Made by a program: the position numbers and the translations under genes. From assembly GCA_943372135.1 (NCBI GenBank), contig CALRXH020000005.1, forward strand, positions 51,978 to 115,977: a stretch of DNA of 64,000 bases, written 5' to 3'. Each line of letters starts with the position of its first letter. Within the stretch, counting starts at the first letter, position 1. The notes under the pieces were generated by a model, which saw only the letters and a list, made by a program, of their open reading frames with translations, was not told the origin of the DNA and made no database searches. Shown one piece after another: positions 14,246 to 52,511 of the stretch. Origin of the DNA: Maricaulis salignorans (GTDB lineage Bacteria; Pseudomonadota; Alphaproteobacteria; Caulobacterales; Aquidulcibacteraceae).

Positions 14246-15250
14246 ATGGTTGACCGTCCCGCATTTCTCGACTTCGAGAAACCCATTGCCGATCTTGAAA
14301 AGAAGATCGATGAGTTGAACGCGACAGCGGAAAAGAGTGGCGCGAAAGGTGTGCGCACCGAAGTCTCGAAGCTCCGGCAAAAGGCCAATCGCGCCTTGGC
14401 CGACCTGTATCAAAATTTGGATCCTTGGCGACGCACACAAGTTGCGCGCCATCCAGACCGGCCGCACTTTAAAGATTATGTCGACGAGCTGATCACCGAC
14501 TATGTCGAGTTAGCGGGGGATCGTAAGTTTGGCGAGGATGCCGCCATTCTAGGCGGCATGGGCCGGTTCCGGGGCCGCCGCGTCGTCGTGCTAGGCCATG
14601 AGAAGGGCCGTACGACCCCGCAACGTCTCAAGCATAATTTCGGAATGGCCCGACCCGAGGGCTACCGGAAGGCTGTGCGCTTGATGGATATGGCGGAGAA
14701 GTTTGGGCTCAGCGTCCTCACCTTTGTTGATACCGCCGGGGCTTATCCCGGGCTTGATGCCGAAGCGCGCGGCCAGGCCGAAGCCATTGCGCGTGCGACG
14801 GAACGCTGTTTGACGTTGGGCGTGCCAATGGTCTCGGTCATTACCGGTGAAGGTGGCTCTGGCGGGGCGGTTGCAATTGCCGCGGCCAATAGCGTGCTGA
14901 TGCTGGAAAACTCTGTCTATTCGGTGATTTCACCCGAGGGTGCGGCTTCGATCCTCTACCGTTCGGCCGATCGGGCCAAGGATGCTGCCACCGCCATGAA
15001 AATCACCGCCCAAGACCTTTTGGGCTTTGGGGTGATTGACGGGATTATCCCAGAACCGTTGGGTGGCGCACATCGGGGGCGCGCCAACGCCATCAAGTCA
15101 GTTGGCGATAGCATTGAAAAAGCACTCTACCAGCTAGAAGCCCTAGATGCAGAAGGCTTAAGGGCTCACCGCGCAGACCGTTTCTATCGAATTGGGCGCT
15201 CATTGGTGGACTTGCCTTCAGCCACCGATACACCGACCAAAGCTGGCTAA
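14246..15250 (+). CDS. accA: Acetyl-CoA carboxylase carboxyltransferase alpha subunit
   Basis: FLDFEKPI, QVARHPDRP, GDRKFGED.AI, FGMARPEGYRKA, VDTAGAYPG, GEGGSGGA, YSVISPEG. Confidence 0.97.
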   Translation: MVDRPAFLDFEKPIADLEKKIDELNATAEKSGAKGVRTEVSKLRQKANRALADLYQNLDPWRRTQVARHPDRPHFKDYVDELITDYVELAGDRKFGEDAAILGGMGRFRGRRVVVLGHEKGRTTPQRLKHNFGMARPEGYRKAVRLMDMAEKFGLSVLTFVDTAGAYPGLDAEARGQAEAIARATERCLTLGVPMVSVITGEGGSGGAVAIAAANSVLMLENSVYSVISPEGAASILYRSADRAKDAATAMKITAQDLLGFGVIDGIIPEPLGGAHRGRANAIKSVGDSIEKALYQLEALDAEGLRAHRADRFYRIGRSLVDLPSATDTPTKAG

Positions 15251-16387
15251 ATCCTGCACGAACAGGTCTGGAGCTTCCCAAGCGGCGAAGTGCCCACCAT
15301 GGGGCATGTCCGTCCAATGCTGCAGATTATAGCCGATCTCCACCCAGTCCCGGGGTGGGTTGGGGAAAATGCTGTCACCAGGGAAATTGGCAAAGCCTGT
15401 AGGCACGTCAATCCGCTGACCGGGATTGAGGAAATAGCCACCGCCCTCCTCCAAAACCCCGCGATAGAACCAAACAGAGGTCGCAAAGCAGTCGGTCAGC
15501 ACATAATGCATGATATTGGTCAAAAGCTCCTGCTTGCCAAAAATGGTGTCGAGCGACCCGCGCGAGGCGTCGGACCAGTTTTGAAACTTCTCAACAATCC
15601 AAGCTGCCTGTCCAAAAGGGGAGTCGGTTACAGCCATGGCCAGCAATTGCGGTCGCGTGGTCTGAAGTTGAAAATAAGCACCGCCCATTTGCATCATAGC
15701 TTGCGAATTCTGCGCCCAAGCGCCCCGCTCTGGCGTGTTCAGCGTCGACATGTCCGGGCGCAGCCCCAGCATATTGAGATGAATGCCGCGCACGACATCT
15801 CCATGCTCTAGACCCAGCCAAGCCGTAACCACCGACCCCCAATCGCCCCCTTGGGCGATGAAAGACCTATAACCCAAGACATCGACCATCAATTTGGTGA
15901 ACAACGTGGCCGTGGTTCGCGGTCCGATCGGGCGCGCGGGCCTGCCGGAAAAACCATAGCCAGGCAGACTGGGGATGATCAGATCAAATGCATCTTCAGC
16001 TTTACCGCCGTGCTGGCTCGGAAACGCCAAAGGGCCAATGACTTTGTGAAACTCAAATACCGAACCCGGCCAGCCATGGCTAAGCAAGAGTGGCCGCTTA
16101 CCACCAGCCTCACCCACAACATGGAGAAAGTGGATGTCTTGGCCGTCAATCGTGACCGTAAACTGGGGCAAACGATTGAGTTCTGCCTCGACTGCCCGCC
16201 AGTCATAGGTGTTAAGCCAATAATCCTGAAGCTCTTTCAACCAAGTGGTGGACGCGCCGCGCGACCAATCATCTACCCCCTCATCGGCTGGTACATCTGG
16301 CCATTGGAAAGCCGCCACCCGCCGCTGAACCTCATCCAGCTTGGCTTGCGGGATATGGATGGAGAAGGGTTTCAGACCATTGCCCAT
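15218..16387 (-). CDS. Epoxide hydrolase (EHN domain + alpha/beta hydrolase)
   Basis: LLSHGWPGS, PSLPGYGFS, QGGDWGS nucleophile, GGHFAAWE. Confidence 0.92.
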   Translation of the reverse strand: MGNGLKPFSIHIPQAKLDEVQRRVAAFQWPDVPADEGVDDWSRGASTTWLKELQDYWLNTYDWRAVEAELNRLPQFTVTIDGQDIHFLHVVGEAGGKRPLLLSHGWPGSVFEFHKVIGPLAFPSQHGGKAEDAFDLIIPSLPGYGFSGRPARPIGPRTTATLFTKLMVDVLGYRSFIAQGGDWGSVVTAWLGLEHGDVVRGIHLNMLGLRPDMSTLNTPERGAWAQNSQAMMQMGGAYFQLQTTRPQLLAMAVTDSPFGQAAWIVEKFQNWSDASRGSLDTIFGKQELLTNIMHYVLTDCFATSVWFYRGVLEEGGGYFLNPGQRIDVPTGFANFPGDSIFPNPPRDWVEIGYNLQHWTDMPHGGHFAAWEAPDLFVQDLASFGRCIGG

Positions 16388-16389
16388 CC

Positions 16390-18057
16390 CTAATTCGGCC
16401 AATAGGCAATGGTGTCATCTTTGGTGACCTTGGTTCCTAACGCCCGGTCAATGGCGATTGGACCCTCCAGCGTGGCGGGATAAAGCGGCTTGCGCCCGCT
16501 GGCCTTATGGTCGTCTAACAGCTTGCGGAGCTTAGCCACCATGTCGGGACGGGCCACAGCCAGATTGGTCTTCTCTGTCGGGTCTGTGGCTAGATCATAA
16601 AGATAAACAGTACTGGGTTTTTCGATCACTTGCAGCTTCCAATCGAGATGGCGCACTACACGGTAGCCGTCGCTTTGCCAGAAGATGGTCTCATGGGGAC
16701 GCGCATTGCCTGCCTTGCCTTGGGCATTCGGCAAGATATTGACGCCATCAATCGCAACGCCCTTGGGAAGGGCTGCCCCTGCCGCTGCCGCCAATGTTGG
16801 CATTAAATCAATATGGGCGACGGGGGCTTGCACCTGGGTGCCGGCTGGAATTTTTCCCGGCCATGACATGAACATGGGCACGCGGATGCCCCCTTCAAAG
16901 AGAGAGAGTTTCCAGCCCCGGAAAGGCTTGTTGATCTCTGGCAGCCCAATATAGCCTGGCCCACCATTGTCGCTCGAAAACACGATCAAGGTATTGTCGG
17001 CCATGCCTTGTTCTTTCAAGGTCGCGACAATCCGGCCTACACTGCGGTCTAACGACACAATCATCGCCGCATAAACCCGTTCGCGCTCGGAGCTCATCGG
17101 CCCCACCGCATCATAGTCAGACTTCGTGGCCTGTAGGGGCGTATGAACAGTCCAATGCGAGAGATTGATAAAGAAGGGGCGGTTTTTGTTAGCCTTGATG
17201 ACTTCAATCGCTTCATCGGTCCAATAATCGGCGAGATAGCCGCGCGGCTTAAACCATTCCCCGTCATTGTAGGAGGCCGCATATTCCATCCGTGCCCACA
17301 AGAATTTGTCGATCGGGTCAAAATCGAGCTTGGCATTGACGGCATTGGGATCATCTTCGGGCAAGTGAAGGCCGCTAGCCATCAACAGGCTTTCGTCAAA
17401 CCCTTGGGCATTTGCCCCAAACTCCGGGCCAAGTCCTGTGTGCCACTTGCCGATATGAACGGTGTGATAGCCGCGCGTCTTCAAGACTTCGGCGATGGTC
17501 ACTTCTGAGCCCGGCAGGCCTTGCTCGTCATACTTCGGCATTTCGGCCACGCGGTCGGCATGATAAATGGCGGGCGGCATGCCACTTTGTCCCCGCATGG
17601 AGTCCGCCACCATTTTCACGATCCGACTCATACCGTCTGGCGTCGGGGTAAATTCAAAGCCTGTGCGGGTTGGATAGCGCCCTGTCATGATCATCGCGCG
17701 CGACGGCGCGCAGCTGGCCGTGCCTGAATAGGCCTGACGGAATGCGACGCCCGAGCCGGCCAAGGCATCGATGTTGGGGGTCTTGATTTTCCCATTGCCG
17801 AGGCCGCCGCCAAAGGTCGAGATGTCATTATAGCCCAGATCATCGGCCAGAATAAAAATGATATTGGGCGGACGGTCGCCAGATGTGGTCTCGGCAGCAG
17901 CCGGGCCCTGCATCCAGGCAATAGGCTTGTTTTCAGGAATATCGGTGCGCTTTTGGGAAGCAGCCAGCGCCAGAACCAAATCCACGCGCTTCACATAGGC
18001 CAGTGCCCCTAAGCCTAAGATGGCAACGAGGCCACCCAACAGGATTTTCTTCATCAT
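16390..18057 (-). CDS. Formylglycine-dependent sulfatase, N-terminally anchored
   Basis: NIIFILADDLG, CAPSR signature (SCAPSRAMIMTGRY), GKWH, SSDNGG, EGGIRVP; hydrophobic N-terminus. Confidence 0.92.
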   Translation of the reverse strand: MMKKILLGGLVAILGLGALAYVKRVDLVLALAASQKRTDIPENKPIAWMQGPAAAETTSGDRPPNIIFILADDLGYNDISTFGGGLGNGKIKTPNIDALAGSGVAFRQAYSGTASCAPSRAMIMTGRYPTRTGFEFTPTPDGMSRIVKMVADSMRGQSGMPPAIYHADRVAEMPKYDEQGLPGSEVTIAEVLKTRGYHTVHIGKWHTGLGPEFGANAQGFDESLLMASGLHLPEDDPNAVNAKLDFDPIDKFLWARMEYAASYNDGEWFKPRGYLADYWTDEAIEVIKANKNRPFFINLSHWTVHTPLQATKSDYDAVGPMSSERERVYAAMIVSLDRSVGRIVATLKEQGMADNTLIVFSSDNGGPGYIGLPEINKPFRGWKLSLFEGGIRVPMFMSWPGKIPAGTQVQAPVAHIDLMPTLAAAAGAALPKGVAIDGVNILPNAQGKAGNARPHETIFWQSDGYRVVRHLDWKLQVIEKPSTVYLYDLATDPTEKTNLAVARPDMVAKLRKLLDDHKASGRKPLYPATLEGPIAIDRALGTKVTKDDTIAYWPN

Positions 18058-18084
18058 GACGTCAGTCTCCCCCAAAATATTGTC

Positions 18085-19131
18085 TCAGTTCGCATCGAAT
18101 AGGGCTTCACATCCTGTGCCCGACAGGATCGCGCGGCAAGCCGCGGCATCTGAGCCAGACAAGGACTTTGCATGATCTTTCAGCCAAACCAGACATTTGG
18201 CCTGATAGGCAAAAGTTGGTTGTGTCCAAGCCCGCCCATCAATCATGGTCTCAAAACTCGTTTGGCCAGCTTGGGCGGCTTGGGCATTGGCGACTAAGAA
18301 TGGCACATACACGCGGCCAATCTCAGCTAGAAGCGGCGCGAGGCGGGTTTGCGCCTGATCTCGCGTCAGCCAGTCACCATCTTTAGGGTCGAGGCCCGAT
18401 AAGTCTTCCATCCGGTCGATCCAGGCGCGCAGCCGCGGCGTCCGTTCAGCACATAGCGCTGCTGGGGTAGGATCGACGACACCTAATTGGGTCAACTGAC
18501 CATAAAGGCCGAAGTCACTGGTCCCGGGTCTTGCCCCCATCACAAAGCCAGCTGGCTGGATCAAGGCCTCCAGCACGCCAAGCAAACGCTCATAGGACTG
18601 CTCGATTGTCGCAGCCGTGACAGCATTGGAACCCACGACATAGAGGCGATCAATCTGGCGCTTGGAGATAAAGTCTGAGGCGGCCTTGGCGTCTGCGTCC
18701 GGCGTCGTGGTATCATGCCAGAACACCAATTGCGGCCCCGCATGGGCAATATCGGCTTCGCGCGCCCAGCGATAATGGAACATGGCCTTGGTCAGCCATT
18801 CATCGGCAAAGTCTTCGATCAGATGATCGAGAAACGCGATAACCGGATCGCTCGGCACCAAGCCGCGACCCGCATATTCCTGCTCAAGCCGCGCCAGGAT
18901 GGGGGTGGAATCAACTTGCGCTTCATAACCGCCATCGGCTTGAGGAAAATAGACGGTCGGCAGAAGCTTCACCTTGGCCTCTGGAAAGCCCGACATGGGG
19001 CTGCGATGACTGCCCCAATGCAGGGCATAGGGAATGTGGCGATAGCGCAAGGCCGCAATGACTTTGCGGGTATAAGGCGAGCCTGCTGCCCCTAAAACAT
19101 GGAGGCGTGACAGGGCTGGAGCATCAGACAT
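18085..19131 (-). CDS. Glutathione S-transferase family protein
   Basis: GSPYTRKV N-terminus, LLP.V..P, DSTPI, EDFADEWL, DFGLYGQL. Confidence 0.82.
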   Translation of the reverse strand: MSDAPALSRLHVLGAAGSPYTRKVIAALRYRHIPYALHWGSHRSPMSGFPEAKVKLLPTVYFPQADGGYEAQVDSTPILARLEQEYAGRGLVPSDPVIAFLDHLIEDFADEWLTKAMFHYRWAREADIAHAGPQLVFWHDTTTPDADAKAASDFISKRQIDRLYVVGSNAVTAATIEQSYERLLGVLEALIQPAGFVMGARPGTSDFGLYGQLTQLGVVDPTPAALCAERTPRLRAWIDRMEDLSGLDPKDGDWLTRDQAQTRLAPLLAEIGRVYVPFLVANAQAAQAGQTSFETMIDGRAWTQPTFAYQAKCLVWLKDHAKSLSGSDAAACRAILSGTGCEALFDAN

Positions 19132-20972
19132 CAGACAGCTTTCTTATTGCCAGAGAAGAGTGCAAGGGCACCGCGAATGAGGGCGAATAAGATCAGGACA
19201 AGAACCAGAGCAAGGCCTGCCAATTGCCAGCCATAAAAGCTCACCTGGCGCATGATGCTGTTATGCGCGGCCTGACGCTGCACCTTATAGCCCTTAGGTA
19301 AGTCAAGGACGCCATTGGCCTTCGCATAAGCGGCATAGGCACGTTCCAGATCGGCGCGAACCTCGGGCAATTGCATTGACAAGTCTGTCATTTGGCCGGG
19401 ATCCTTCACGACGTGATAGAGCCGCCACTGATTGTCGCCATATGGGGGGTTATACTTCACCAGCGTGAAATCGCCCTTGGTGATGGCGGCATTGCCAGAA
19501 ACCTCCACCCCAACCGCGTCATTGGGCCCATAAACCGCTTGCGCTTTGCCTGACAGTACCGAAGCCAGACTGCGGCCCGAAATCGGCTTGGAACCGGCAA
19601 TAGCAGGCGCACCACCCACAAGATCGATCAAAGTAGGCGTAATGTCTTGCACAAAGGCTGCAGCAGTGACGGCTTTGTCGGCGGCAATGCCAGGACCTGC
19701 CATCACCATTGGCACATGCAAACCACCGCTGGAAGTATAAAACTTGAACAAATGGCCAGGCGTAGCGACCGCACTCGCCCATTCGGGACCAATCCAGTTG
19801 TAGCTACCGCGCTCTCCGAGATTTGCCAACTCGCGCGTATAGCCATGGGTCTTCATCCATAAGTTAAAGCCGCGCTCGCCGCCGGGATTACTCGGCTCTG
19901 GCCCATTGTCCGAGGTGATGACAAAGATCGTATTCTCAAGCTCACCGGTTTTGTCCAAATGCACAACCAGACGTCCGATCTCGGCATCGGTGGCCTCGAT
20001 CATCCCGGCATAGACTTCCATCGCCTTGGCCTGCATCTTCTTTTCATCCGCGCTCAAGCTGTCCCAAGCCCGCATACTGGCGTGCATGGCAGGTGCTTTG
20101 GCGTCATTCGGCACGAAGCCCAAAGCTTTGGCGCGCTCAAACCGGTCTTTGCGCAATTGGTCCCAGCCGCCATCAAAGCGGCCAGCGTATTTTTGAGTGA
20201 AGGCACGCGGCGCCTGAACCGGGATGTGGACGGCTTGCAAGGCGACATAGGCTAAAAAGGGCTTATCGTCCTTGGGGTTTGCGTCCAGATAGGCTAGCAT
20301 CTTGTTGACGATCACGGTCGAGGAAAACTGGCCGCTGGGATACGAAGTGGGTTTATCATCCTCAAACCACGGTGCCTCGTTATAAAACGGCATATAGGGC
20401 TTATCATCCCAATTATCGGCTCCCGAAGCATCAAGCGCGAAGGATCGGTCAAAGCCGTGTGAGCCTGGCAATTGCCCAGGCCCGTCGCCCAAATGCCACT
20501 TGCCACTCATGAAGGTGTGATAGCCCGCCAAGCGCAACCGCTCTGGCAACGTGGCAACATTGGGCTCTAAATGAAGGCCATAGCCCGGCTTGCCAACATG
20601 CTCTTTCGGCAGAACTTCCTTGATCGTTGCCACGCCTGCCTGATGGTTGGTCAGGCCCGTCAGCAACATGGCGCGCGAGGGCGAGCACAAAGGCGAGGTT
20701 GAATAACGGGTAAAGCGCGCTCCCCGACGGGCGATGGCATCGATAGTCGGGGTTTTAGCCTCGCCGCCATAAATGCCCAGATCCATCAAGGCGGCATCGT
20801 CAAACAAAATGATCACAACATTGGGCTTGGCCTTTGGTGCAGCGACCTTGGGATCTGACTGCCCAAAGGAGGGCCCGGCACTTATCACCAGAGCCAATGC
20901 ACCCAGCGTAACACTGACAGAGCGCATCAATCCAAACAGGTGTCTGTTAGTTTTGCCCACGCTCGCCCCCAA
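19131..20972 (-). CDS. Arylsulfatase (AtsA-like, formylglycine-dependent)
   Basis: NVVIILFDD, CSPSR signature, SGKWHLG, HIPVQAP, YAGMIE..D..IGRL, TSDNGP; start uncertain (20972, 20963 or ATG 20927); hydrophobic C-terminal tail. Confidence 0.9.
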   Translation of the reverse strand: MGASVGKTNRHLFGLMRSVSVTLGALALVISAGPSFGQSDPKVAAPKAKPNVVIILFDDAALMDLGIYGGEAKTPTIDAIARRGARFTRYSTSPLCSPSRAMLLTGLTNHQAGVATIKEVLPKEHVGKPGYGLHLEPNVATLPERLRLAGYHTFMSGKWHLGDGPGQLPGSHGFDRSFALDASGADNWDDKPYMPFYNEAPWFEDDKPTSYPSGQFSSTVIVNKMLAYLDANPKDDKPFLAYVALQAVHIPVQAPRAFTQKYAGRFDGGWDQLRKDRFERAKALGFVPNDAKAPAMHASMRAWDSLSADEKKMQAKAMEVYAGMIEATDAEIGRLVVHLDKTGELENTIFVITSDNGPEPSNPGGERGFNLWMKTHGYTRELANLGERGSYNWIGPEWASAVATPGHLFKFYTSSGGLHVPMVMAGPGIAADKAVTAAAFVQDITPTLIDLVGGAPAIAGSKPISGRSLASVLSGKAQAVYGPNDAVGVEVSGNAAITKGDFTLVKYNPPYGDNQWRLYHVVKDPGQMTDLSMQLPEVRADLERAYAAYAKANGVLDLPKGYKVQRQAAHNSIMRQVSFYGWQLAGLALVLVLILFALIRGALALFSGNKKAV

Positions 20973-20987
20973 ACCACTTCATTGTTT

Positions 20988-21004
20988 TGACACGATGATT
21001 GTCA
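20988..21004. promoter_or_regulatory. Candidate operator TGACA-N7-TGTCA upstream of the arylsulfatase
   Basis: Perfect 5-bp inverted repeat with 7-nt spacer; a related TGACA-N7-TGCAA lies at 22174-22190. Confidence 0.4.
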
Positions 21005-21053
21005 TTGGAGGTGCGAGGGGTCAAGACAAATCCAATCACGATCACGGCCCGCC

Positions 21054-22139
21054 TCAATTGCGCAAGACACGCCGCTTGGATAGCTTGCCTTGGCTGTCCA
21101 GCGAGACCAAATCGCCATCCTCCATGATCCAGAACGTTCCCTTAAACTTCTGCTTGGCATCGCCCAAGAACGGCCCTTCCAGCGCCTTGAGTGGCAAGGC
21201 GGGCACAATATGGGTCAAGGCCACGCCGCCAACCTTGGCGGCATTGGCAATGTCGGCGATTTGGCTCGGCGTCGCGTGATAATTTTCAATATCATGGAAG
21301 ACTTGGCTAACACCCGCCTGCCCGGAATCTTTGGCTGCCTTGCCCATAATCTGGGTCAGGTTTGTCGCGATGGCCTCATGTACCAATAGATTGGCCCCTT
21401 GTGACGCCTTGGTCACGCAGTCACACGCCTTTGTATCCCCGCTGATGACAATCTTTTGCCCGCCATATTCAATTCGATAGCCCAAAGCCGGCTCAATCGG
21501 GCGGTGGTCGACACCAAAAGCAATGATTTTCAGCCCGTCCTGATCATAGACGACAGCCTCTGCCCCGATAGCAGGGGCAGCAAAGGGCTTAGCCTCAAAT
21601 CCAAAACCAGAGGGCGGAACAATCGCGGCACCATGGTGGGCAACCCGGTAACCGCGATCTTGGCTGTAGACTTGGGTAAGACCTGCCGCAATTTGCTCAA
21701 CCCCCGTCGGCCCATAAAGCGGCAGCGGTGCCTTGGCCGAACTCGACGCCCAGCGCTGAAGACCCAAAGAACCCAGTCCATCAATGTGGTCGGAATGAAA
21801 ATGGGTCAGGAACACAGCTTGCACTTGGCCCGTTGGCAAGCCCATCAGATTGAGGGTTTCGGCCGATCCCTCGCCTGCATCGAACACAAAAAGCTTGCCG
21901 CCAGCGATAATCGCCAAACAAGGGCCTGCGCGATCAAGGTCTGGCATTGGGGAACCGGTCCCGCAAAAGCCCGCATGCAGCCCGGTCTTCAACCCTTCGA
22001 TGGTCGGATTCGCAAGGGCTTGATCGGCACCACGCTCCAGAACCGCCAAAGCAATCTTGTCCCGATTTAAAATCCCGACTGCAGCCCCGCAAACAAGGAG
22101 CCCCGCTAGAATGGCTAGAATTGGCTTGGCTTTCATCAC
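21054..22139 (-). CDS. MBL-fold metallohydrolase (RNase Z/arylsulfatase-like)
   Basis: GTGSP, DAGEG, THFHSDHIDG, VDHRP....GYR, ISGDT, YHATP, THIVP; N-terminal TM. Confidence 0.88.
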   Translation of the reverse strand: MMKAKPILAILAGLLVCGAAVGILNRDKIALAVLERGADQALANPTIEGLKTGLHAGFCGTGSPMPDLDRAGPCLAIIAGGKLFVFDAGEGSAETLNLMGLPTGQVQAVFLTHFHSDHIDGLGSLGLQRWASSSAKAPLPLYGPTGVEQIAAGLTQVYSQDRGYRVAHHGAAIVPPSGFGFEAKPFAAPAIGAEAVVYDQDGLKIIAFGVDHRPIEPALGYRIEYGGQKIVISGDTKACDCVTKASQGANLLVHEAIATNLTQIMGKAAKDSGQAGVSQVFHDIENYHATPSQIADIANAAKVGGVALTHIVPALPLKALEGPFLGDAKQKFKGTFWIMEDGDLVSLDSQGKLSKRRVLRN

Positions 22140-22177
22140 GACCCCATATGCGGCTTGTTGGTAAACGCTCTATTGAC

Positions 22178-22205
22178 ACTATAAGTGCAATAATCAACCT
22201 GTCAA
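22178..22205 (-). promoter_or_regulatory. sigma70-like promoter with overlapping palindrome
   Basis: Minus strand TTGACA (22205-22200)-N16-TATAGT (22183-22178); palindrome ATTGACACTATAAGTGCAAT (22172-22191) covers the -10. Confidence 0.6.
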
Positions 22206-22244
22206 ACAGCCACGGCCTTTTTCTCGAGGCCCTGCTGCTCCCAC

Positions 22245-23144
22245 CTATCGCACATCGCGCACCAGGCGGAACCCGATGTGATTACTTGAAAAATCAACAT
22301 CTTGCGGCTGGCGGGCTTGCGGACGATACCGACCACAGAAGTTATCTGAACACAGCCAAGACCCGCCTTTGACCGTCCCCGAGACCCCGTCCAGATAGGG
22401 TGTTTCGGTCCATTCCCAGACATTGCCGATCATATCATAGAGGCCTAGTTTGCTGGGCGGAAAACAGCCGACAGGTGCCGTAGATTGAAAGCCGTCGGAG
22501 CCTTCATCCAAAAGGGGAAACAGCCCCTGCCATGTATTGGCAATCGGCTTCTTTTGGGGATCATACGCGCCAGATCGCGTGTTTGCCTGATCCGGCAAGC
22601 CGGACTGGGCGGCAAACTCCCACTCCACCTCATTGGGCAAACGCGCACCAGCCCATGCCGCATAGGCTTTCGCATCTTGGCGGGATACATGAATGACGGG
22701 CTTATCCTCTTGGCCCTCGATGGTGCTGCCGGGGCCTGAAGGTGCCTTCCATGTCGCACCTGGTATCAATCTCCAGTATCCGGGTCGGCCATTCTTGCCA
22801 CTTTCAAACACGGCCGAGCCTGCTCCACCATCTGTTCGGGTCAGCGACTTTTCGGCGTCCGTGACATAGGCTTTCGCGGCGACAAAGGCTGCAAATTCGC
22901 GGTTTGTCACTTCGTGCGCCTGCATCAGAAACCCATTTACCTGCATGCGCATGGATGGGCCTTCTTCTGGAAAGGAAGGATCCTGACCCAAAAGAACTGA
23001 GCCTGGAGGAATTTTTACCCAGCCACCCTGTTGCGCAGCAGGCAGGCCGCAGCTGACCTTTGCCGCACTCTTTTTGGCCTCTGGCGCTGGCGTGCAGCCA
23101 GAGGCGAGGAAGAATGGCAGCAGGATCAAAATAGCTCGTTTCAC
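22245..23144 (-). CDS. Formylglycine-generating enzyme (SUMF1/FGE), lipoprotein
   Basis: HEVTN.EF..FV, PVIHVS..DA.AYA.WAG.RLP.E.EWE.AA, GLYDMIGNVWEW, KGGSWLCSDNFCGRYRP.AR, HIGFR; lipobox LASGC; GTG start. Confidence 0.9.
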   Translation of the reverse strand: MKRAILILLPFFLASGCTPAPEAKKSAAKVSCGLPAAQQGGWVKIPPGSVLLGQDPSFPEEGPSMRMQVNGFLMQAHEVTNREFAAFVAAKAYVTDAEKSLTRTDGGAGSAVFESGKNGRPGYWRLIPGATWKAPSGPGSTIEGQEDKPVIHVSRQDAKAYAAWAGARLPNEVEWEFAAQSGLPDQANTRSGAYDPQKKPIANTWQGLFPLLDEGSDGFQSTAPVGCFPPSKLGLYDMIGNVWEWTETPYLDGVSGTVKGGSWLCSDNFCGRYRPQARQPQDVDFSSNHIGFRLVRDVR

Positions 23145-24421
23145 GATGTCAGTTCTTTCAAGGCGTCTTCAATCACCCATAAGCGGTCCTGCCCCCATAC
23201 GCACACATCGTTGACACGAAAACACGGAACGCCCCAATGGCCAATTTCCAAAAGCTCCAGCCGATTGGCCTCCGCCTCTTCGCGCCAGCTCTCGCGAGCC
23301 AGCTGTTCGCGCGCTTCTGGCCATGGCAGGCCCGCGGTTTCCACAATCTGCTTCATCCCGGCATCAGAGCCCGCATCGACGCCTTGCGACCACACGGCAG
23401 TCAAAAACGACTCAACAAACTCATAGCCACGCCCCTGCTGCATGGCCCAAGCCAGAATGGCGTAGCCGCGCTCAACCGGCTTGCCGACCGGATCGGCAAT
23501 ACGCCCAAACGGAATATGAAGCCGTCGGGCCTCGCGCGCATTGTCGAGCGTGAAATAGCGGCTCTTCATCGGCGGCACAGGCAAACCCCGCATCACCATG
23601 GGCAGGACATACCGCAAGCGCAATTGTGCACCATAGGCATCAGCCAAGGCTTTTGCCCGATGGGCTGACAAATAAGTATAGGGGCTGCGGAAGGATAAAT
23701 ACCAATGCAGCACTGGCTGTGCACCAGCTTGCATTTTGGCTGGTTTGAGTTCCAAATCCGGCGCAGGGAAGATCAGAGCGGAGGGTGCTCCCGAGACATG
23801 TGCGCCAACACCGCGCAAGCGGGTTTCGAGATAATGGAGGCGATCAATACCCCAATACCACTCGCCGCCATAATGCAGCATTGCGCCCATGAAATGGCCT
23901 AAACGCGCCCGTTCAGCGTCACCTTTGGCACAAGGCCCGCCCGACAAGGGCGCTGCAAGTGGCTGGGAGGTGCCGGCCCACAGCGCCTTGCTTATCGAGA
24001 GGGCGCGGGGCCAGAAGTCTTCTGCCCCTAAAGCTTGCGCAAACTGATCTTGCGCGGCGCGAACGGCCTCGGGTGCCGGCTGCACGCCTTGATCGACGAA
24101 GGTAAAGCCGGACTTCTTCGCCAAACGCGCGCTATCTTCTCGGGCATAGGCAATCAGGCGATCGCGCTCTGGTGCTGCCCAATCATCGGGCGGCCCAACC
24201 AGCCAGACGTGGAGGTCAAGATCATAGCGGCTGCGGAACAGGTCCAAGGCCTGCAGCGCCAAATGACCATAGGGATCATCAATTTGATGAAAATAGTCGA
24301 CACGGTGGCGCGCGCCTTGGCGCTGACGTTCTTTTTCGAACTTGTCGCGGGCCCCATCTTGGCGCTGCGCGCTGGTGATGGCCTCTGCCACCCGTGAAAC
24401 CACTAGCGTTTTCAGTGACAT
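23141..24421 (-). CDS. Tandem DsbA-like / GST-kappa (HCCA isomerase-like) two-domain protein
   Basis: Domain 1 DYFHQIDDPYGHL...FMGAMLHYGGEWYWGIDRL; domain 2 WYLSFRSPYTYL...WGVPCF...WGQDRL. Confidence 0.82.
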   Translation of the reverse strand: MSLKTLVVSRVAEAITSAQRQDGARDKFEKERQRQGARHRVDYFHQIDDPYGHLALQALDLFRSRYDLDLHVWLVGPPDDWAAPERDRLIAYAREDSARLAKKSGFTFVDQGVQPAPEAVRAAQDQFAQALGAEDFWPRALSISKALWAGTSQPLAAPLSGGPCAKGDAERARLGHFMGAMLHYGGEWYWGIDRLHYLETRLRGVGAHVSGAPSALIFPAPDLELKPAKMQAGAQPVLHWYLSFRSPYTYLSAHRAKALADAYGAQLRLRYVLPMVMRGLPVPPMKSRYFTLDNAREARRLHIPFGRIADPVGKPVERGYAILAWAMQQGRGYEFVESFLTAVWSQGVDAGSDAGMKQIVETAGLPWPEAREQLARESWREEAEANRLELLEIGHWGVPCFRVNDVCVWGQDRLWVIEDALKELTS

Positions 24422-24573
24422 TGCGCGCCCCCCTTGATTTTTGACCAACCTATGTTTTGGCGTACAGAATGTCAAAAAGAAGTATGCTTTCACGCCCACC
24501 GCGATCGGCCCCAATGGACCAAAAGGATTAAGCGGCTTAGGTGGGACAGGGATTATCTAAACGAGGATAGACG

Positions 24574-25665
24574 ATGCAGGTGCTCAAGCTGTTAGCCTTA
24601 TGTCTTTTGAGTAGTAGCGCGTGCGGGCAGGCACCGGGGCCGGCTGTCCCGGTACAAGACCAAACATTTTCGACCCGCATCAGCGCTTTGAGCCTGTCCC
24701 CCCAAAACATGACAGGGATCACCAGCACTAGCCCCGCTGATTTGATATATGCCCTGCAGCTCGATACCAAGCGGCAAAACCCGGGCACCCCAGAAGAATT
24801 TGGCGGTCTCTCCTCCCTCTCAGTACAAGCGATTGAAGGCGACACAATCGTTTTTGACGCTTTGACCGACCAAGGCCACCTTGCCCGCTTCTCAGCTCCC
24901 AATCCGCTAACTTGGGCAGCAAGCCCGCCTGCGCCCAGCCAAGTTCACCTCACCATACTCACCGATCCGGCAGGTAAACCGCTGCGCGGGGCCAATCAGG
25001 TCGATAGCGAGGGCCTAGCCCCCACCGACACCGGTTTTCTCATCAGCTTTGAGCGCGACCACCGCCTTCTCGAACTCGTCAAGACAGGTGAGGGCTACAC
25101 AAGTCAGATTGGCCCCACCCTGTCGGGCTTTGAGGGACTTGAATCCAATGGTGGGATGGAGGCGCTGACCCGCCTGCCCAATGGCCAGTTTTTGGCCTCA
25201 GCCGAATATGGCCCAGATCGGTTGGGCGATCCTGCTGCCAAGCTCAAAGCGCCTTATTGGATATTTGATCAGGCCAGCACCGCGGTCACCGCGCCCTTCG
25301 GCAGCTTTGAAAATCAAGGCCGCTTTGGCATCACAGACATCCGGGTGTTGGATCAGGATGTTTGGGTTCTGAAACGTTCCTATGACCCCGCAAGCAAGAT
25401 CACCTTATCTCGATTGGAAGCATGCGACGTCTCAACCGTTCTAGCAGGCAAGCCAGTCTGTAATTTGAAACTCGCCCTCTCTCCGCCCTTTCCGATGGAC
25501 AATTATGAGGGCCTGGCCATGATGAAAGACCCACAAACCGGGGGCAATCTCGTTTTCATCTTGTCAGACGATAATTTTTCTGCCGATCAAAGCACATACC
25601 TTCTCGCGTTTCGGTTAGCCACTTCCCGCCTCACCCGCCGCCTTAAGCCCGGAGCAACGCCATGA
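24574..25665 (+). CDS. Esterase-like activity of phytase family beta-propeller protein
   Basis: FGGLSSL, DSEGLA, ISFERDH, NGGMEAL, MDNYEGL, LSDDNFS; signal peptide. Confidence 0.8.
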
Positions 25666-26126
25666 CTTCCATCAAGACCAGCCTCTTCGTCGCGACCTGC
25701 CTGATGGCACCCTTTGCCCTATCTGCCTGCCAACCGGGCCCCACCAACACGGTGGCCGCAGCTGGGATGGACGGCATAGACCATAGCCAAATGAATCATG
25801 GCCAAATGGATCATAGCCAAATGGATCAGGGTAACATGATGGGGTCAGGCGATGCGGCTGTTGCCGCAACGCCCTCAACCAAGGCCTTTCAAGCGGCCAA
25901 TTCGACCATGCACCAGAAGATGGCCATCCCCTATTCAGGCGATGCCGACAAAGACTTCATCGCCGGCATGATCCCCCATCATGAAGGCGCAGTCGCCATG
26001 GCCCGCGTTGTGCTGGAGCACGGCAAGGACCCTGAAATCCGCAAGTTGGCCGAAGACATCATCGCCGCTCAAGATCGCGAAATCAGCCAGATGAAGGCGT
26101 GGCAGGCCAAGAATAACAAGCCATAG
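25662..26126 (+). CDS. DUF305/CopM-like Met/His-rich metal-binding lipoprotein
   Basis: Lipobox LSAC, DHSQM repeats, GDAD.DF...[12 protein letters not shown]...L.HG.DPEIR.LAE.II.AQ..EI..M. Confidence 0.88.
25779..25838 (+). repeat. In-frame 15-bp tandem repeat (three good units plus one degenerate; DHSQM-like)
   Basis: gaccatagccaaatg / aatcatggccaaatg / gatcatagccaaatg / gatcagggtaacatg. Confidence 0.85.
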
Positions 26127-37126: not shown

Positions 37127-37430
37127 GAAGCGCATGCTCCCCTTGAGCAAAAAATGAGCTCTCATCAAGGTCGCGCTTGGAAGGAAAACGTGCAAGGCAA
37201 GACATCACTTCACCCTGCATGTTTTTGGGGCGATGGCTCTACAAGTTGTGGGTCAATCGGATGCAAATCTGGTTCGTCGGCTCAAGACGGCCCACGCCAG
37301 CGGCGCAGCCGTGTCAGCGCGAGAAAATCAGGTCTTCGCCAGCATGGTTTGAATTTGAAATATGCCCATGCTGACTATGGTGCGTGCTGCAATAAACGCA
37401 GTGGGAAACAAATTCCAGTTCTGGGCCAAA

Positions 37431-37457
37431 CCTCTGTGCCCAATGGGGTCACAGAGG
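37431..37457 (-). terminator. Terminator-like hairpin behind the fasciclin remnant
   Basis: CCTCTGTG...CACAGAGG 8-bp stem with TTT following on the minus strand, 15 nt after the stop at 37472. Confidence 0.55.
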
Positions 37458-37471
37458 TCGGGCGCTTTGGT

Positions 37472-37675
37472 TTAGCGGATATAGGGCAGGTCTGCCGGCA
37501 TCAACACGGTATCAATGGCATGGATCAGGCCATTGCTAGCGGGAATATCGGCTTGCACGACATTTGCGTTATTGACTCGAACGCCGTTGCGGCCATCGAT
37601 GGACACAGAATGCCCTTCCAAGGTTGGGCTGGTCATCGTCATCCCCATCAAGCCGGAAGACGGGACCCGGCCCGC
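37472..37675 (-). pseudogene. 3' remnant of a fasciclin (FAS1) domain gene
   Basis: AGRVPSSGLMGMTMTSPTLEGHSVSIDGRNGVRVNNANVVQADIPASNGLIHAIDTVLMP has the FAS1 H2 motif (ASNG.IH.ID.VL); the N-terminal H1 region is absent. Confidence 0.8.
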
Positions 37676-38566
37676 CTGGCCCATGCTCGCATCTTTGCGC
37701 GGGTCAGGCCGGAAGCTAAACTTAAGCTGATCTTGGCTTTTCAAGCCTTGGGCCATGTGGTGGCAATGACCGGCGACGGGGTCAATGATGCGCCAGCCTT
37801 AGAAGCCGCCCATGTCGGTATCGCTATGGGACAGCGCGGGACCGATGTAGCGCGTGAGGCGGCCGACCTTGTGTTGCTTGACGATAGCTTCGCCTCCATC
37901 ATCTCAGGCGTCCGCTTAGGGCGGCGCATTTTTGCCAATTTACGCAAAGCACTGGGCTATGTACTCGCGATCCATATCCCGATTGCTGGGCTCGCCCTGC
38001 TCCCAATTGTCTTGGGTGTACCGCCTCTATTGTTCCCGATGCATATTGTGGTGATGGAATTGATGATCGACCCTATATCCCCCCTCGTCTTTGAGGCAAA
38101 GCCGAGCGAAGCGTCTGCAATGGTACAACCCCCGCGCGCATTGAATGAGCCCCTGTTTGGCATGACGCAAATGGCTTGGGCCGGACTTCAGGGCCTTATC
38201 CTGCTCGCCGGCGTGCTGGGCCTTTATCTCTGGGTGATCAACATGGACATCCCCGAAACGGCAGCACGCTCTATTGGCTATGTCAGTCTGGTGACCGGCA
38301 ATGTGACCCTCGCGCTGGTGAATGGCTACGAGCCTTCAATCAGCCCGTTTGACCGCCGACATCGATTGTTATGGATTGTGGCCTTGCTGGTTTCAACGAC
38401 CTTGGCAGCCATTCTTTATCGACCGTGGTTGAGCCGTATCTTTAAAATGGCCCCATTGGGGGCACATGATCTCGGTCTTGCACTGGGCGTCGCATGCCTG
38501 GCAGGGGGCTGGTCGGTGAGCGCTCGACTGTTGGCCAAACGCCCCATCCCGCAATCAACAACTTGA
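37675..38566 (+). pseudogene. 3' remnant of a cation-translocating P-type ATPase
   Basis: IFARVRPEAKL, VAMTGDGVNDAPAL..AHVGIAMG.RGTDVAREAADLVLLDDSFASI..GVRLGRRIF.NL and C-terminal TMs; no DKTGT or TGES upstream. Confidence 0.85.
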
Positions 38567-38633
38567 TTGACCCCTTACCGAAAATCTGACACGATAAGTG
38601 CCAATAGGCAAAAGGCGCGAGGGGAGAGCGGCA

Positions 38634-39530
38634 TTGAAAGTTCTACGGACACCAGATGCGGCATTTGAGGCGGTTGAAGGCTTTAATTATGAGCCCCGCT
38701 ATCTGAACATCAAAGAACCAGAGAGCCAAACGCCTTTGCGCGTGCATTATGTTGACGAAGGGCCGCGCAACGCCCCGATTGTGCTGATGCTGCATGGCGA
38801 ACCAACCTGGAGCTATCTGTATCGGCACATGATTGGTCCTGTGACCGCTCAAGGCCTGCGCGCGATAGCGCCAGACCTGATTGGCTTTGGTCGCTCAGAT
38901 AAGCCAGCCTTGAAACAGGATTATAGCTATGCCCGGCACGTCGCTTGGATGCGACAGTGGCTTGAGACCCTGGATTTGACGAACATCACCTTGGTCTGTC
39001 AGGACTGGGGGTCGCTGATTGGTCTTCGTCTTCTGGCTGAAATGCCCGAGCGCTTTTCTGCGGTAGTTCTTTCCAATGGCGGCCTTCCAGCAGGCCAACG
39101 TGGCCCCACCGCCTTTAAAATCTGGCGTGCCTTTTCCCAATTCAGCCCCATCTTCCCGATTGGCAAGATCGTACAAGCCGGCACCAAGCGCACGCTGTCG
39201 CCTGCCGAGATCGCCGCCTATGATGCGCCCTTCCCCAATTCCCGCTATAAGGCAGGAGCCCGCATTTTCCCGTCCTTTGTGCCCATCGGCGACAATGTGG
39301 CAGTTCCAGACCAACTAGAAGCCTGGAAGGTATTAGATGCCTGGGAAAAGCCCTTCCTCTGCTGCTTTAGCGATGGCGATCCTGTAACGCGCGGCGGACA
39401 GCGCTTGTTCGTGGGCCGTGTCCCAGGCACAGCCAATCAACCCCACACCACGCTGCATGGGGGCCACTTCATCCAAGAAGACGATCCTGCAGGCTTTGTT
39501 TCCTCTATCCTGAAAGTAGCGAAATCATGA
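38634..39530 (+). CDS. Haloalkane dehalogenase (alpha/beta hydrolase)
   Basis: LHGEPTWSYLYR, APDLIGFGRSDKP, CQDWG nucleophile, AYDAPFP, GGHFIQED; TTG start after GGGGAG. Confidence 0.88.
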   Translation: MKVLRTPDAAFEAVEGFNYEPRYLNIKEPESQTPLRVHYVDEGPRNAPIVLMLHGEPTWSYLYRHMIGPVTAQGLRAIAPDLIGFGRSDKPALKQDYSYARHVAWMRQWLETLDLTNITLVCQDWGSLIGLRLLAEMPERFSAVVLSNGGLPAGQRGPTAFKIWRAFSQFSPIFPIGKIVQAGTKRTLSPAEIAAYDAPFPNSRYKAGARIFPSFVPIGDNVAVPDQLEAWKVLDAWEKPFLCCFSDGDPVTRGGQRLFVGRVPGTANQPHTTLHGGHFIQEDDPAGFVSSILKVAKS

Positions 39531-39940
39531 ATGTGACCAATGAAGTTTTTCCAAGCCCAGAACGTGCAAAAGCCTTCTTTGGCGGCCAAGATGATGGGCC
39601 ATTCTGTATGGTCAATCTGTTGAAGTTCAAGGATAAGGCGACCTATCCCGATGGGGCGGAGCCTGAACTGACGGGCCGTGAAGCTTATATGCGCTATGGC
39701 GTAGCCGTCGTGGCGTGTGTCGAAGCCGTTGGCGGCAAAGCGCGCTTTTCCGGCATGGTCACCGATCTGATGCTGGGCCAAGTCGAAGAGCTGTGGGACA
39801 TGGTGGCAATTGCTGAATATCCTTCCCGAGCTGCCATGTTGGCCATGATAAAAACGCCAGATTATCAAGCCATCGAAGTCCACCGCATGGCAGGCCTTGC
39901 CGGTCAGTTGAATATTCGCACCAAGATGATGGGTGGCTAA
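39527..39940 (+). CDS. DUF1330 domain protein
   Basis: MVNLLKFKD.A.YPDG....TGREAYMRYG, WD.VAIAEYPSRAA, HR.AGLAGQLNI; ATGA-coupled to the dehalogenase. Confidence 0.85.
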   Translation: MNVTNEVFPSPERAKAFFGGQDDGPFCMVNLLKFKDKATYPDGAEPELTGREAYMRYGVAVVACVEAVGGKARFSGMVTDLMLGQVEELWDMVAIAEYPSRAAMLAMIKTPDYQAIEVHRMAGLAGQLNIRTKMMGG

Positions 39941-51683: not shown

Positions 51684-52511
51684 CTAGTTCAGAATTCGGG
51701 CCAGTGTGCGTAACCTTTGACCGGCGCTTGGCCCTGTCAAACCATGAAAGCCTGACAAGGATGGATAGCTTACAATACCGTCTGGTCCAGAAAACTCAGG
51801 CCCACGCCCAATGCTAAGTGCGAAGCGGCGGCCGGGTTTTGGATTGAGCTTTGGCGTGATTTCGCGAACGCCATATTGGACATGATGCGAGATGTCCCAA
51901 TGATGAGACACCCCTTCGCACTTCAAATTAAGCCAACAATGCCCGGTGGACCACTGCTCACGTGGTTCGGCGATGTGCACGCCAATGATGTAGGCGGCCG
52001 GCACGCCAATCGCGCGCAAAGCCGCGACAGCTAACGTATGCATATCCACACAGGTGCCGGGAGTAAGGCCGCATTCCAAAGCGGGCATGGCGTCTTCACC
52101 CGTCCCCAAATGCGTCTCGCGTGCACCATAGGTAAAGTGGTCCCCTACATATTGGATGAGGGCGGGTACACGGATTTGTAAGGGTGCCTCCGCCACTTCT
52201 TCCGCGATTTGATCCATCAAAGCCTGCGACGGTCTTTCAAAGGCGCTTAGACCGGGCATGAATGCCTCGTCGCTTAGCCCGGGGCCGGGCTCGTCAAAAG
52301 CTATTTTGACCATGGGTTGATCGCCAGCTTTCAGAGCGAACTGATAAGCTGCAATTCGGCCTTGTGTGTCTTGCACAATGGATTGCGGTTCTGCGCCTTC
52401 AAACGTGACGCCCATAATCTTTTGCTCCCATGTGTCGGGGGCAACTGGGAAGAGGTAGAGACCTGCATCTTCAACGGGAGCTTCCAGAAACGCTTCAAAC
52501 ACACCCATCAT
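51684..52511 (-). CDS. Transglutaminase-like cysteine protein
   Basis: GTCVDMHTLAVAALRAIGVPA.Y..G, GHCW, WD (Cys-His-Asp triad); ATGA-coupled to phnN. Confidence 0.82.
   Translation of the reverse strand: MMGVFEAFLEAPVEDAGLYLFPVAPDTWEQKIMGVTFEGAEPQSIVQDTQGRIAAYQFALKAGDQPMVKIAFDEPGPGLSDEAFMPGLSAFERPSQALMDQIAEEVAEAPLQIRVPALIQYVGDHFTYGARETHLGTGEDAMPALECGLTPGTCVDMHTLAVAALRAIGVPAAYIIGVHIAEPREQWSTGHCWLNLKCEGVSHHWDISHHVQYGVREITPKLNPKPGRRFALSIGRGPEFSGPDGIVSYPSLSGFHGLTGPSAGQRLRTLARILN

Follow-up and report, generated by a model that had tools for sequence, protein, structure and literature searches.

A conserved regulon of sulfatase and glutathione-fold genes, predicted to be under a TetR-type repressor, and its main block in Maricaulis salignorans

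Seven co-oriented genes on contig CALRXH020000005.1 of Maricaulis salignorans (Caulobacterales; GenBank assembly GCA_943372135.1) encode, in their order of reading, a tandem protein of the kappa-type glutathione S-transferase (GST) fold (G1), a formylglycine-generating enzyme (FGE; G2), a metallo-beta-lactamase-fold (MBL) hydrolase (G3), an arylsulfatase (G4), a long GST-fold protein (G5), a second sulfatase (G6) and an epoxide hydrolase (EH; G7). They lie in a stretch of 64,000 nucleotides (forward-strand positions 51,978 to 115,977 of the contig), which we call the window and to which coordinates given without a contig refer. Do these genes form a single catabolic module that removes sulfate from a compound and then disposes of reactive electrophiles, as a sequence-only reading had proposed? 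Comparison with related loci showed that positions 16390-24421, which hold G1 to G6, are the main block of a conserved regulon, predicted from the sequences to be under a TetR-type repressor encoded on another contig, and that EH is probably a neighboring gene.

Conservation of the gene set

All seven open reading frames (ORFs) were found on the minus strand, and the junctions described by the sequence-only reading were confirmed in the sequence: G1 and G2 overlap at GTGA and G4 and G5 at TGATG, 27 nt separate G5 from G6, and 2 nt separate G6 from G7. A Shine-Dalgarno sequence (GGGGGAG) precedes the 27-nt gap. Wider gaps lie between G2 and G3 (105 nt) and between G3 and G4 (81-126 nt, depending on the start chosen). 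The arrangement is far from chance, recurring in dozens of genomes.

Co-conservation had been set beforehand as a test. We collected 80 loci around G5 homologs, searched them with all seven proteins, and based counts on the 57 loci that span 17 kb or more. A G6-type sulfatase, the gene that marks the module best, was present in 35 of the 57, and in 31 of these 35 it immediately followed the GST in the same orientation. Its companions were a TetR-like protein (30/35), MBL (25/35), a DUF1330 protein (25/35), FGE (23/35), a G4-type sulfatase (21/35), a G1-type protein (19/35) and a haloalkane dehalogenase (HLD) of the HLD-I type (9/35). Each was found in at most three of the 22 loci without the sulfatase, and the G1-type protein in none of them. 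EH occurred in one of the 35 loci and was not found in the other 22.

Genomes of the order were also sampled with G6 to avoid the bias of the GST seed. G6 was matched in 57 of the 151 genomes and 13 of the 40 genera, and the 40 regions retrieved contained TetR (31 regions), FGE (27), MBL (25), DUF1330 (23), a G1-type protein (20), HLD (19), GST (13) and EH (2, both from the same genus). The same partners accompany orthologous (about 60% identity) and paralogous (about 50%) sulfatases in these regions. Co-conservation of G1 to G6, with the genes in shuffled order, is strong in Caulobacterales, Sphingomonadales and a few further lineages, whereas EH stands outside the conserved set. The variation of gene order and orientation between genera argues for selection on linkage, and not for shared ancestry alone. 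In the literature, we found no published description of this gene cluster.

Clustering of the ORFs of the related loci revealed conserved partners that are absent from the window block, namely a divergent TetR-like protein, DUF1330 and HLD-I, together with a membrane protein with a DUF1330-like core, a small membrane protein, DJ-1 and enoyl-CoA hydratase. Accessories of a lipid type recur, comprising acyl-CoA synthetase (in five loci) and enoyl-CoA hydratase. The module HLD of related loci matches 6F9O at 2.4e-96. The long GST family is itself large and well conserved (more than 5000 matches); its nearest named members are from Hyphomonadaceae and the closest genomes are metagenome-assembled genomes of Aquidulcibacter.

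Operator palindrome and dispersed partners

A palindrome, TATTGACAC-N5-GTGTCAATA (a core extended by its flanks), precedes module genes across genera. Its core, TTGACAC-N5-GTGTCAA with at most two mismatches, was seen 45 times in the related loci (2.15 Mb), where 6.9 occurrences would be expected. A position weight matrix (PWM) found 142 sites in these loci. Of these, 121 stand before a module gene at a distance of up to 400 nt, and the usual spacing to the start codon is 20-60 nt; the others mostly precede HLD, whose start was misplaced in the query. Orthologs of G1 in other loci have 26 such sites upstream.

With a PWM based solely on 39 sites in other genera, we scanned the 3.02-Mb genome to which the window belongs. 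Only seven positions scored 18 or higher, and the five best lie at TetR, module, HLD and long-GST genes (Table 1), which argues that the block is regulated and that its regulation acts in trans. The absence of a transporter or regulator, pointed out earlier for the block, is true within it; the block belongs to a predicted TetR regulon all the same. The site between G2 and G3 overlaps the -10 box of a near-consensus minus-strand promoter (TTGACA-16-TATAGT, 22205..22178, 11/12 in the scan), and it is conserved in a diverged congener (L085) in which its flanks are not. The site between G3 and G4, near a weak promoter match (21024..20995), is identical in congeners L001, L003 and L084. The TetR gap holds a perfect 6-7-6 palindrome. 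A pattern of this form with at most one mismatch matched the genome 12 times against about 7 expected, which is unconvincing alone, and a plain search for inverted repeats in the promoter gaps yielded little beyond an imperfect shared palindrome. The operator became clear only once it was defined on other genera. We infer that TetR binds the palindrome before G1-G2, G3, G4-G7 and HLD-DUF1330.

The HLD-DUF1330 pair lies about 14 kb from the block in the same window, where it adjoins phn genes. The encoded HLD matches 5ESR (4.4e-109) with QDWG (nucleophile) and GGHF (catalytic His) conserved in the alignment, and is 46% identical to the HLD inside the module of other genera. Just upstream of the HLD operator, the stretch 37154-38566 includes an ORF that encodes the C-terminal portion of a P-type ATPase; gene stumps in this region suggest a rearrangement that may have separated the pair from the block. 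The window is thus seen differently from before, with a block that would be regulated in trans, partners 14 kb away and on another contig, and an EH probably outside the system.

Table 1. Positions of the block genes, of the detached partners and of the operator-like sites in the genome
Feature	Position	Strand	Details
G1, tandem DsbA/kappa-GST/HCCA-isomerase-like protein	24421..23141	-	426 aa; DSBA-like PF01323
G2, FGE, predicted lipoprotein	23144..22245	-	PF03781 FGE-sulfatase
G3, exported or N-terminally anchored RNase-Z/ElaC-type MBL hydrolase	22139..21054	-	PF12706 (Lactamase_B_2) + PF00753
G4, PAS-like (S1_4-like) arylsulfatase	20927..19131	-	PF00884 Sulfatase
G5, long GST-fold protein, cytoplasmic	19131..18085	-	348 aa; PF13417 (GST_N_3) + PF13410 (GST_C_2)
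G6, S1 sulfatase, N-terminal membrane anchor	18057..16390	-	PF00884 Sulfatase
G7, microsomal-type EH	16387..15218	-	PF06441 (EHN) + PF00561 (Abhydrolase_1)
HLD-I haloalkane dehalogenase	38634..39530	+	NCBIfam NF002043, 422.9 bits (cut-off 265); TTG start probable
DUF1330 protein	39527..39940	+	PF07045; 4-nt overlap with HLD; 55% identical to DUF1330 of the L010 module
TetR ortholog	contig C10:86853-87476		beside membrane DUF1330-like gene
Site, rank 1	contig C10, TetR gap		PWM score 29.2
Site, rank 2	22169..22195, FGE-MBL gap		PWM score 23.1
Site, rank 3	38582..38608, upstream of HLD		PWM score 20.4; centre about 39 nt before the start at 38634
Site, rank 4	20983..21009, MBL-G4 gap		PWM score 20.3
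Site, rank 5	contig C3, upstream of third long-GST paralog		PWM score 20.2
Site, rank 8	24453..24479, upstream of G1, in the divergent gap with a phytase-like gene		PWM score 17.8, weaker

Further genes were noted around these sites and partners. The third long-GST paralog (contig C3:~105989-107060, 29% identical to G5) starts about 165 nt downstream of its site (20.2) and is probably a further member of the regulon. A second, diverged pair on contig C12 (6947-9814) consists of a long GST-like gene (25% to G5) and, directly after it, a gene for a G6-like anchored sulfatase (49%); it adjoins HipA-like and ATPase genes, and neither other partners nor an operator site was found nearby. A short FGE-like paralog (contig C22:16719-17600, 29%) has a weak operator-like site (16.5) upstream and lies beside an ORF resembling a TonB-dependent receptor. 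A probable TonB-dependent receptor of 780 aa (contig C1:128096-130622) has the sixth-ranking site (18.4) about 160 nt upstream; it might serve as the importer of the regulon, but it has no conserved counterpart in related loci. Beside the TetR gene, translations of C10:81866-86222 resemble those of photosynthesis-cluster genes (puh/puc type). Divergent from G1, positions 24574-26126 encode a phytase-like esterase (PF13449) and a DUF305 protein. The phytase-like gene stands beside G1 in congeners only, and, sharing its gap with the weak site at 24453, it might also respond to the repressor.

Predicted enzymes and a possible pathway

Both sulfatases have the intact CxPxR motif noticed earlier. 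G4 (PF00884, 190 bits, cut-off 25) contains CSPSR, DD, GKWHLG and SDNG, which comprise the formylglycine (FGly) position and the metal- and sulfate-binding residues, and its residues 33-542 match the P. aeruginosa arylsulfatase 1HDH (E 1.5e-110). Hydrophobic segments at residues 4-22 and 572-590 correspond to a signal peptide and a C-terminal membrane anchor. G6 (PF00884, 187 bits, cut-off 25) has CAPSR, DD, GKWHTG and SDNG, and a hydrophobic segment at residues 4-22. By domain and motifs, G4 and G6 are S1 FGly-dependent sulfatases predicted to hydrolyze sulfate esters. As the sequence-only reading had it, the activating FGE is encoded locally: G2 has an FGE-sulfatase domain (PF03781, 215.5 bits), paired cysteines (C-x4-C in WLCSDNFCGRY) and, in its translation, a lipobox (LASGC). 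Three potential desulfating enzymes had been counted. Two stand as predicted exported, membrane-tethered sulfatases, and G3 is a possible third, of an S4-like arylsulfatase type. It has a zinc motif of the HxHxDH type (HFHSDH) and an N-terminal hydrophobic segment (residues 6-24), and its best solved relative over the full length is 8GYG ("Arysulfatase", 5.8e-21). Hydrophobic anchors were present in G3, G4 and G6 only and a lipobox in G2 only; G1, G5 and G7 have no hydrophobic segments.

The description of G1 as a tandem of GST-kappa domains agrees with its AlphaFold2 model (pLDDT 89), which contains two domains of the DsbA/kappa type, whose closest folds are those of HCCA isomerase and GST kappa (3FZ5, 2IMD and 1R4W). 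PF01323 matched residues 270-453 of the long ORF, and the PDB sequence search gave HCCA isomerase 2IMD at 1.3e-7. The C-terminal domain carries the features of kappa GSTs and HCCA isomerases, with the invariant motifs SPYT, GVP and WGQDR; the N-terminal domain has the fold without the Ser, which is replaced by Asp in DPY, so Ser-Pro-Tyr is kept in the C-terminal domain only. In G5, S18-P-Y-T-R-K, P58 (cis-Pro) and D74-S75, which are G-site residues, are invariant across 18 homologs. Its AlphaFold2 model (pLDDT 89) is a GST fold with a C-terminal extension of about 100 residues. Foldseek returned GSTs only, the best being a weak match to StyI (9QD3; E 9e-6, TM 0.51, 13-14% identity), and the PDB sequence search found no close solved relative. 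By sequence and model, G5 belongs to the cytosolic GST superfamily, and it was assigned to no known class.

These predictions suggest the following pathway. Three hydrolases would act at the periplasmic face of the inner membrane: G4, held by its C-terminal anchor, G6, held by its N-terminal anchor, and the anchored G3. The lipoprotein FGE would mature the two S1 enzymes, and G3, G4 and G6 together would remove sulfate ester groups. An uncharged hydrophobic product would then enter the cytoplasm, where HLD, the long GST and the tandem kappa/HCCA-isomerase-like protein may remove or rearrange further leaving groups, for example halide, with DUF1330 taking part. Substrate or product would release the repressor. 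The tethered hydrolases and maturase, the cytoplasmic partners, the ligand-type repressor and the lipid-type accessories point to an amphiphilic sulfated substrate, which we infer to be a sulfated, possibly halogenated, lipid-like compound. The idea of desulfation followed by electrophile disposal survives here as a functionally linked set with sulfatases, FGE and two glutathione-fold proteins, and loses its epoxide part. Because the haloalkane dehalogenase is conserved and EH is not, epoxide and aromatic-electrophile chemistry is less well founded than a carbon-halogen link.

As a whole, the reading of a TetR regulon that handles an amphiphilic sulfated extracellular compound, with EH as a neighbor, seems to us just on the probable side of even. 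Several points weigh against it. The solved relatives nearest to G6, the S1_19/S1_16 carrageenan sulfatases (5e-77), act on a polysaccharide. G3 may instead be a phosphodiesterase, the next-best relatives after 8GYG being PNGM-1 and the tRNase Z ELAC (1e-16 to 1e-14). Only some module loci, roughly a quarter to a half, have HLD. The TetR protein falls below the Pfam cut-off (PF00440, 19.9 bits, cut-off 24) and is weakly TetR-like by sequence, its only PDB matches being TetR regulators at E 1e-4 to 1e-2; its link to the operator is drawn from co-occurrence and from the perfect site at its own promoter. Leave-one-out matrices made from four sites of the window's own genome recovered only two of the four. 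Finally, a long GST with the operator also occurs in Caulobacter loci L013 and L035 without a sulfatase nearby, so the role of the long GST may exceed this pathway.

Speculatively, every part would suit halogenated sulfated lipids, for instance the chlorosulfolipids of algae. A bolder form of the favored reading makes the regulon the physiological home of HLD-I: aquatic heterotrophs would degrade or detoxify sulfated and halogenated lipids, for example chlorosulfolipids of chrysophytes and other algae, by periplasmic desulfation with three membrane-tethered sulfatases and then cytoplasmic dehalogenation by HLD and glutathione-dependent enzymes, and in this genus a recruited EH would open epoxides from vicinal chlorohydrins exposed by desulfation. 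We regard this version as a long shot. Aquatic bacteria are rich in HLDs, PAS-type arylsulfatases, DUF1330 proteins and members of this long GST family, and to our knowledge none of these has a known natural substrate. The shared operator offers an experimental handle on this, as the repressor would be expected to bind the substrate or a product close to it, and it could uncover a route by which sulfated, possibly halogenated, lipids of algae are turned over in freshwater and the sea.

Alternative explanations and known systems

The best-surviving alternative keeps all seven genes, EH included, as one self-contained catabolic module in which desulfation yields reactive electrophiles (epoxide or aromatic), to be cleared by the GSTs and EH. 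G7 itself is, by domain and motifs, a typical microsomal-type epoxide hydrolase (PF06441, 125 bits; 5F4Z at 4.5e-84; HGWP, the GGDWG nucleophile and a His in the translation). The 2-nt gap makes co-transcription with G6 likely, and in this genome EH is probably transcribed with it by read-through. EH adjoins the module in all congeners examined (L002, L003, L084, L085), EH orthologs and a G6-type sulfatase are both present in genera g1, g10, g15, g25 and g26, and StyI, to which the long GST has its best fold match, is an epoxide-conjugating GST, although this match is weak. Against this, EH is missing from the module loci of every other genus (adjacent in 1 of the 57 GST-seeded and 2 of the 40 G6-seeded loci). 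Its orthologs, present in 57 of the 151 genomes, are located elsewhere in the genome outside this genus, and in 22 such loci of other genera no operator was found within 1.5 kb of them. In genus g4, the sulfatase is present in eight of nine genomes and EH in one of nine. One ortholog, from a genus of the same family in which the sulfatase was not found (locus L145), lies beside accA, as in the window, without the module, and in congener G014 (L084, 10650-12400) an opposite-strand gene of about 487 aa parts G6 from EH. Given the adjacency confined to one genus, the lack of an operator elsewhere, the persistent accA adjacency and the insertion in G014, EH is most simply seen as a backbone gene, probably a passenger and not a conserved member of the module. 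The self-contained module is therefore unlikely.

Slightly less likely still is sulfur scavenging, in which sulfate would be freed from organosulfates under sulfate limitation, as by Pseudomonas ats, the other genes being incidental. G4 is a full-length homolog of the P. aeruginosa arylsulfatase, an enzyme of the sulfate-starvation response, and a local FGE with three candidate sulfatases would suit this role. Control, however, apparently lies with a ligand-type TetR that has its own operator and not with a sulfur regulator, and no ats- or ssu-type ABC transporter, nor any transporter family, recurs in the 80 related loci as would befit a Pseudomonas-type ats locus. The constant company of HLD, DUF1330, kappa-GST and MBL is not explained by sulfur supply. 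The proteins show no depletion of Cys and Met, a signature of sulfate starvation (30th-58th percentile of the long ORFs of the genome); this test is a weak one.

Maintenance of the cell's own envelope, with tethered sulfatase-fold enzymes remodeling an endogenous sulfated lipid or glycan, we consider very improbable. All four exported proteins are predicted to be membrane-tethered, and the module is nearly universal in some genera (16 of 17 genomes in g15, eight of nine in g4). Across the order it is patchy (57/151 genomes, 13/40 genera), no biosynthetic sulfotransferase recurs in the related loci, and its rearrangement, paralog expansion and ligand-type repressor are what one usually sees in accessory catabolic traits.

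Phosphorus scavenging, with the FGly hydrolases and MBL as phosphodiesterases or phosphonate-monoester hydrolases serving alongside the phytase-like gene that diverges from G1 and the large phn cluster that HLD-DUF1330 abuts, is the most remote of these explanations: PAS-type enzymes are promiscuous towards phosphoesters and there are NCBIfam matches to PehA and PhnP, but every match to a phosphoesterase model is weak and far under its cut-off, and among the 80 related loci no phn, pho or phytase family is found in five or more, which makes the phosphorus-gene neighborhood a peculiarity of this genus. We rejected on the same grounds the specific candidate of PehA-like phosphonate-ester hydrolases tied to the phn cluster.

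Among known systems, glutathione-dependent epoxide pathways (StyI of Gordonia, 9QD3, and the isoprene IsoI type) resemble G5 in its best fold match and kept G-site residues. They differ in the weakness of that match, the additional C-terminal module of G5 (about 100 residues) and the lack of monooxygenase or CoA-transferase partners here. HCCA isomerase and kappa GST (2IMD, 3FZ5, 1R4W) share the kappa fold with both halves of G1, and Ser-Pro-Tyr and WGxDR with its C-terminal half, whereas the tandem fusion, the Ser-to-Asp exchange in the first domain and the absence of a naphthalene-type aromatic pathway set G1 apart. TetR catabolic regulons (dhaR-dhaA for haloalkanes, PsrA/FadR for fatty acids) likewise have a divergent TetR-like protein, a palindromic operator overlapping a promoter and an autoregulatory site. 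The repressor here has no close characterized relative (best PDB E 1e-4), and in the literature we found no described regulon that matches the operator and the gene set.

PAS, the AtsA of P. aeruginosa (1HDH), has been assigned to SulfAtlas subfamily S1_4, and its own physiological substrate is unknown (PMC5066984). G4 aligns over the whole of this enzyme and has its FGly and metal/sulfate ligand motifs; unlike PAS, it carries a signal peptide and a C-terminal anchor and is placed in a predicted TetR regulon with HLD and GSTs, not in an ats or sulfate-starvation context. Family S4 of MBL arylsulfatases is represented by AtsA of Pseudoalteromonas carrageenovora (PMC5066984). G3 resembles this family in its HxHxDH motif, ElaC-type core and best solved relative (8GYG), and differs in the modest similarity, with tRNase Z and PNGM-1 close behind, and in its N-terminal anchor. 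The window HLD passes the NF002043 model and matches 5ESR, as expected of the solved HLD-I enzymes (5ESR, 6F9O, 4MJ3; DhlA, 1EDB). Characterized HLD-I enzymes have been studied on synthetic haloalkanes, and we know of no natural role for them; the window gene differs from these in its operator link to sulfatases and GSTs. What is new here is the dispersal of the parts in this genome and the operator that reunites them.

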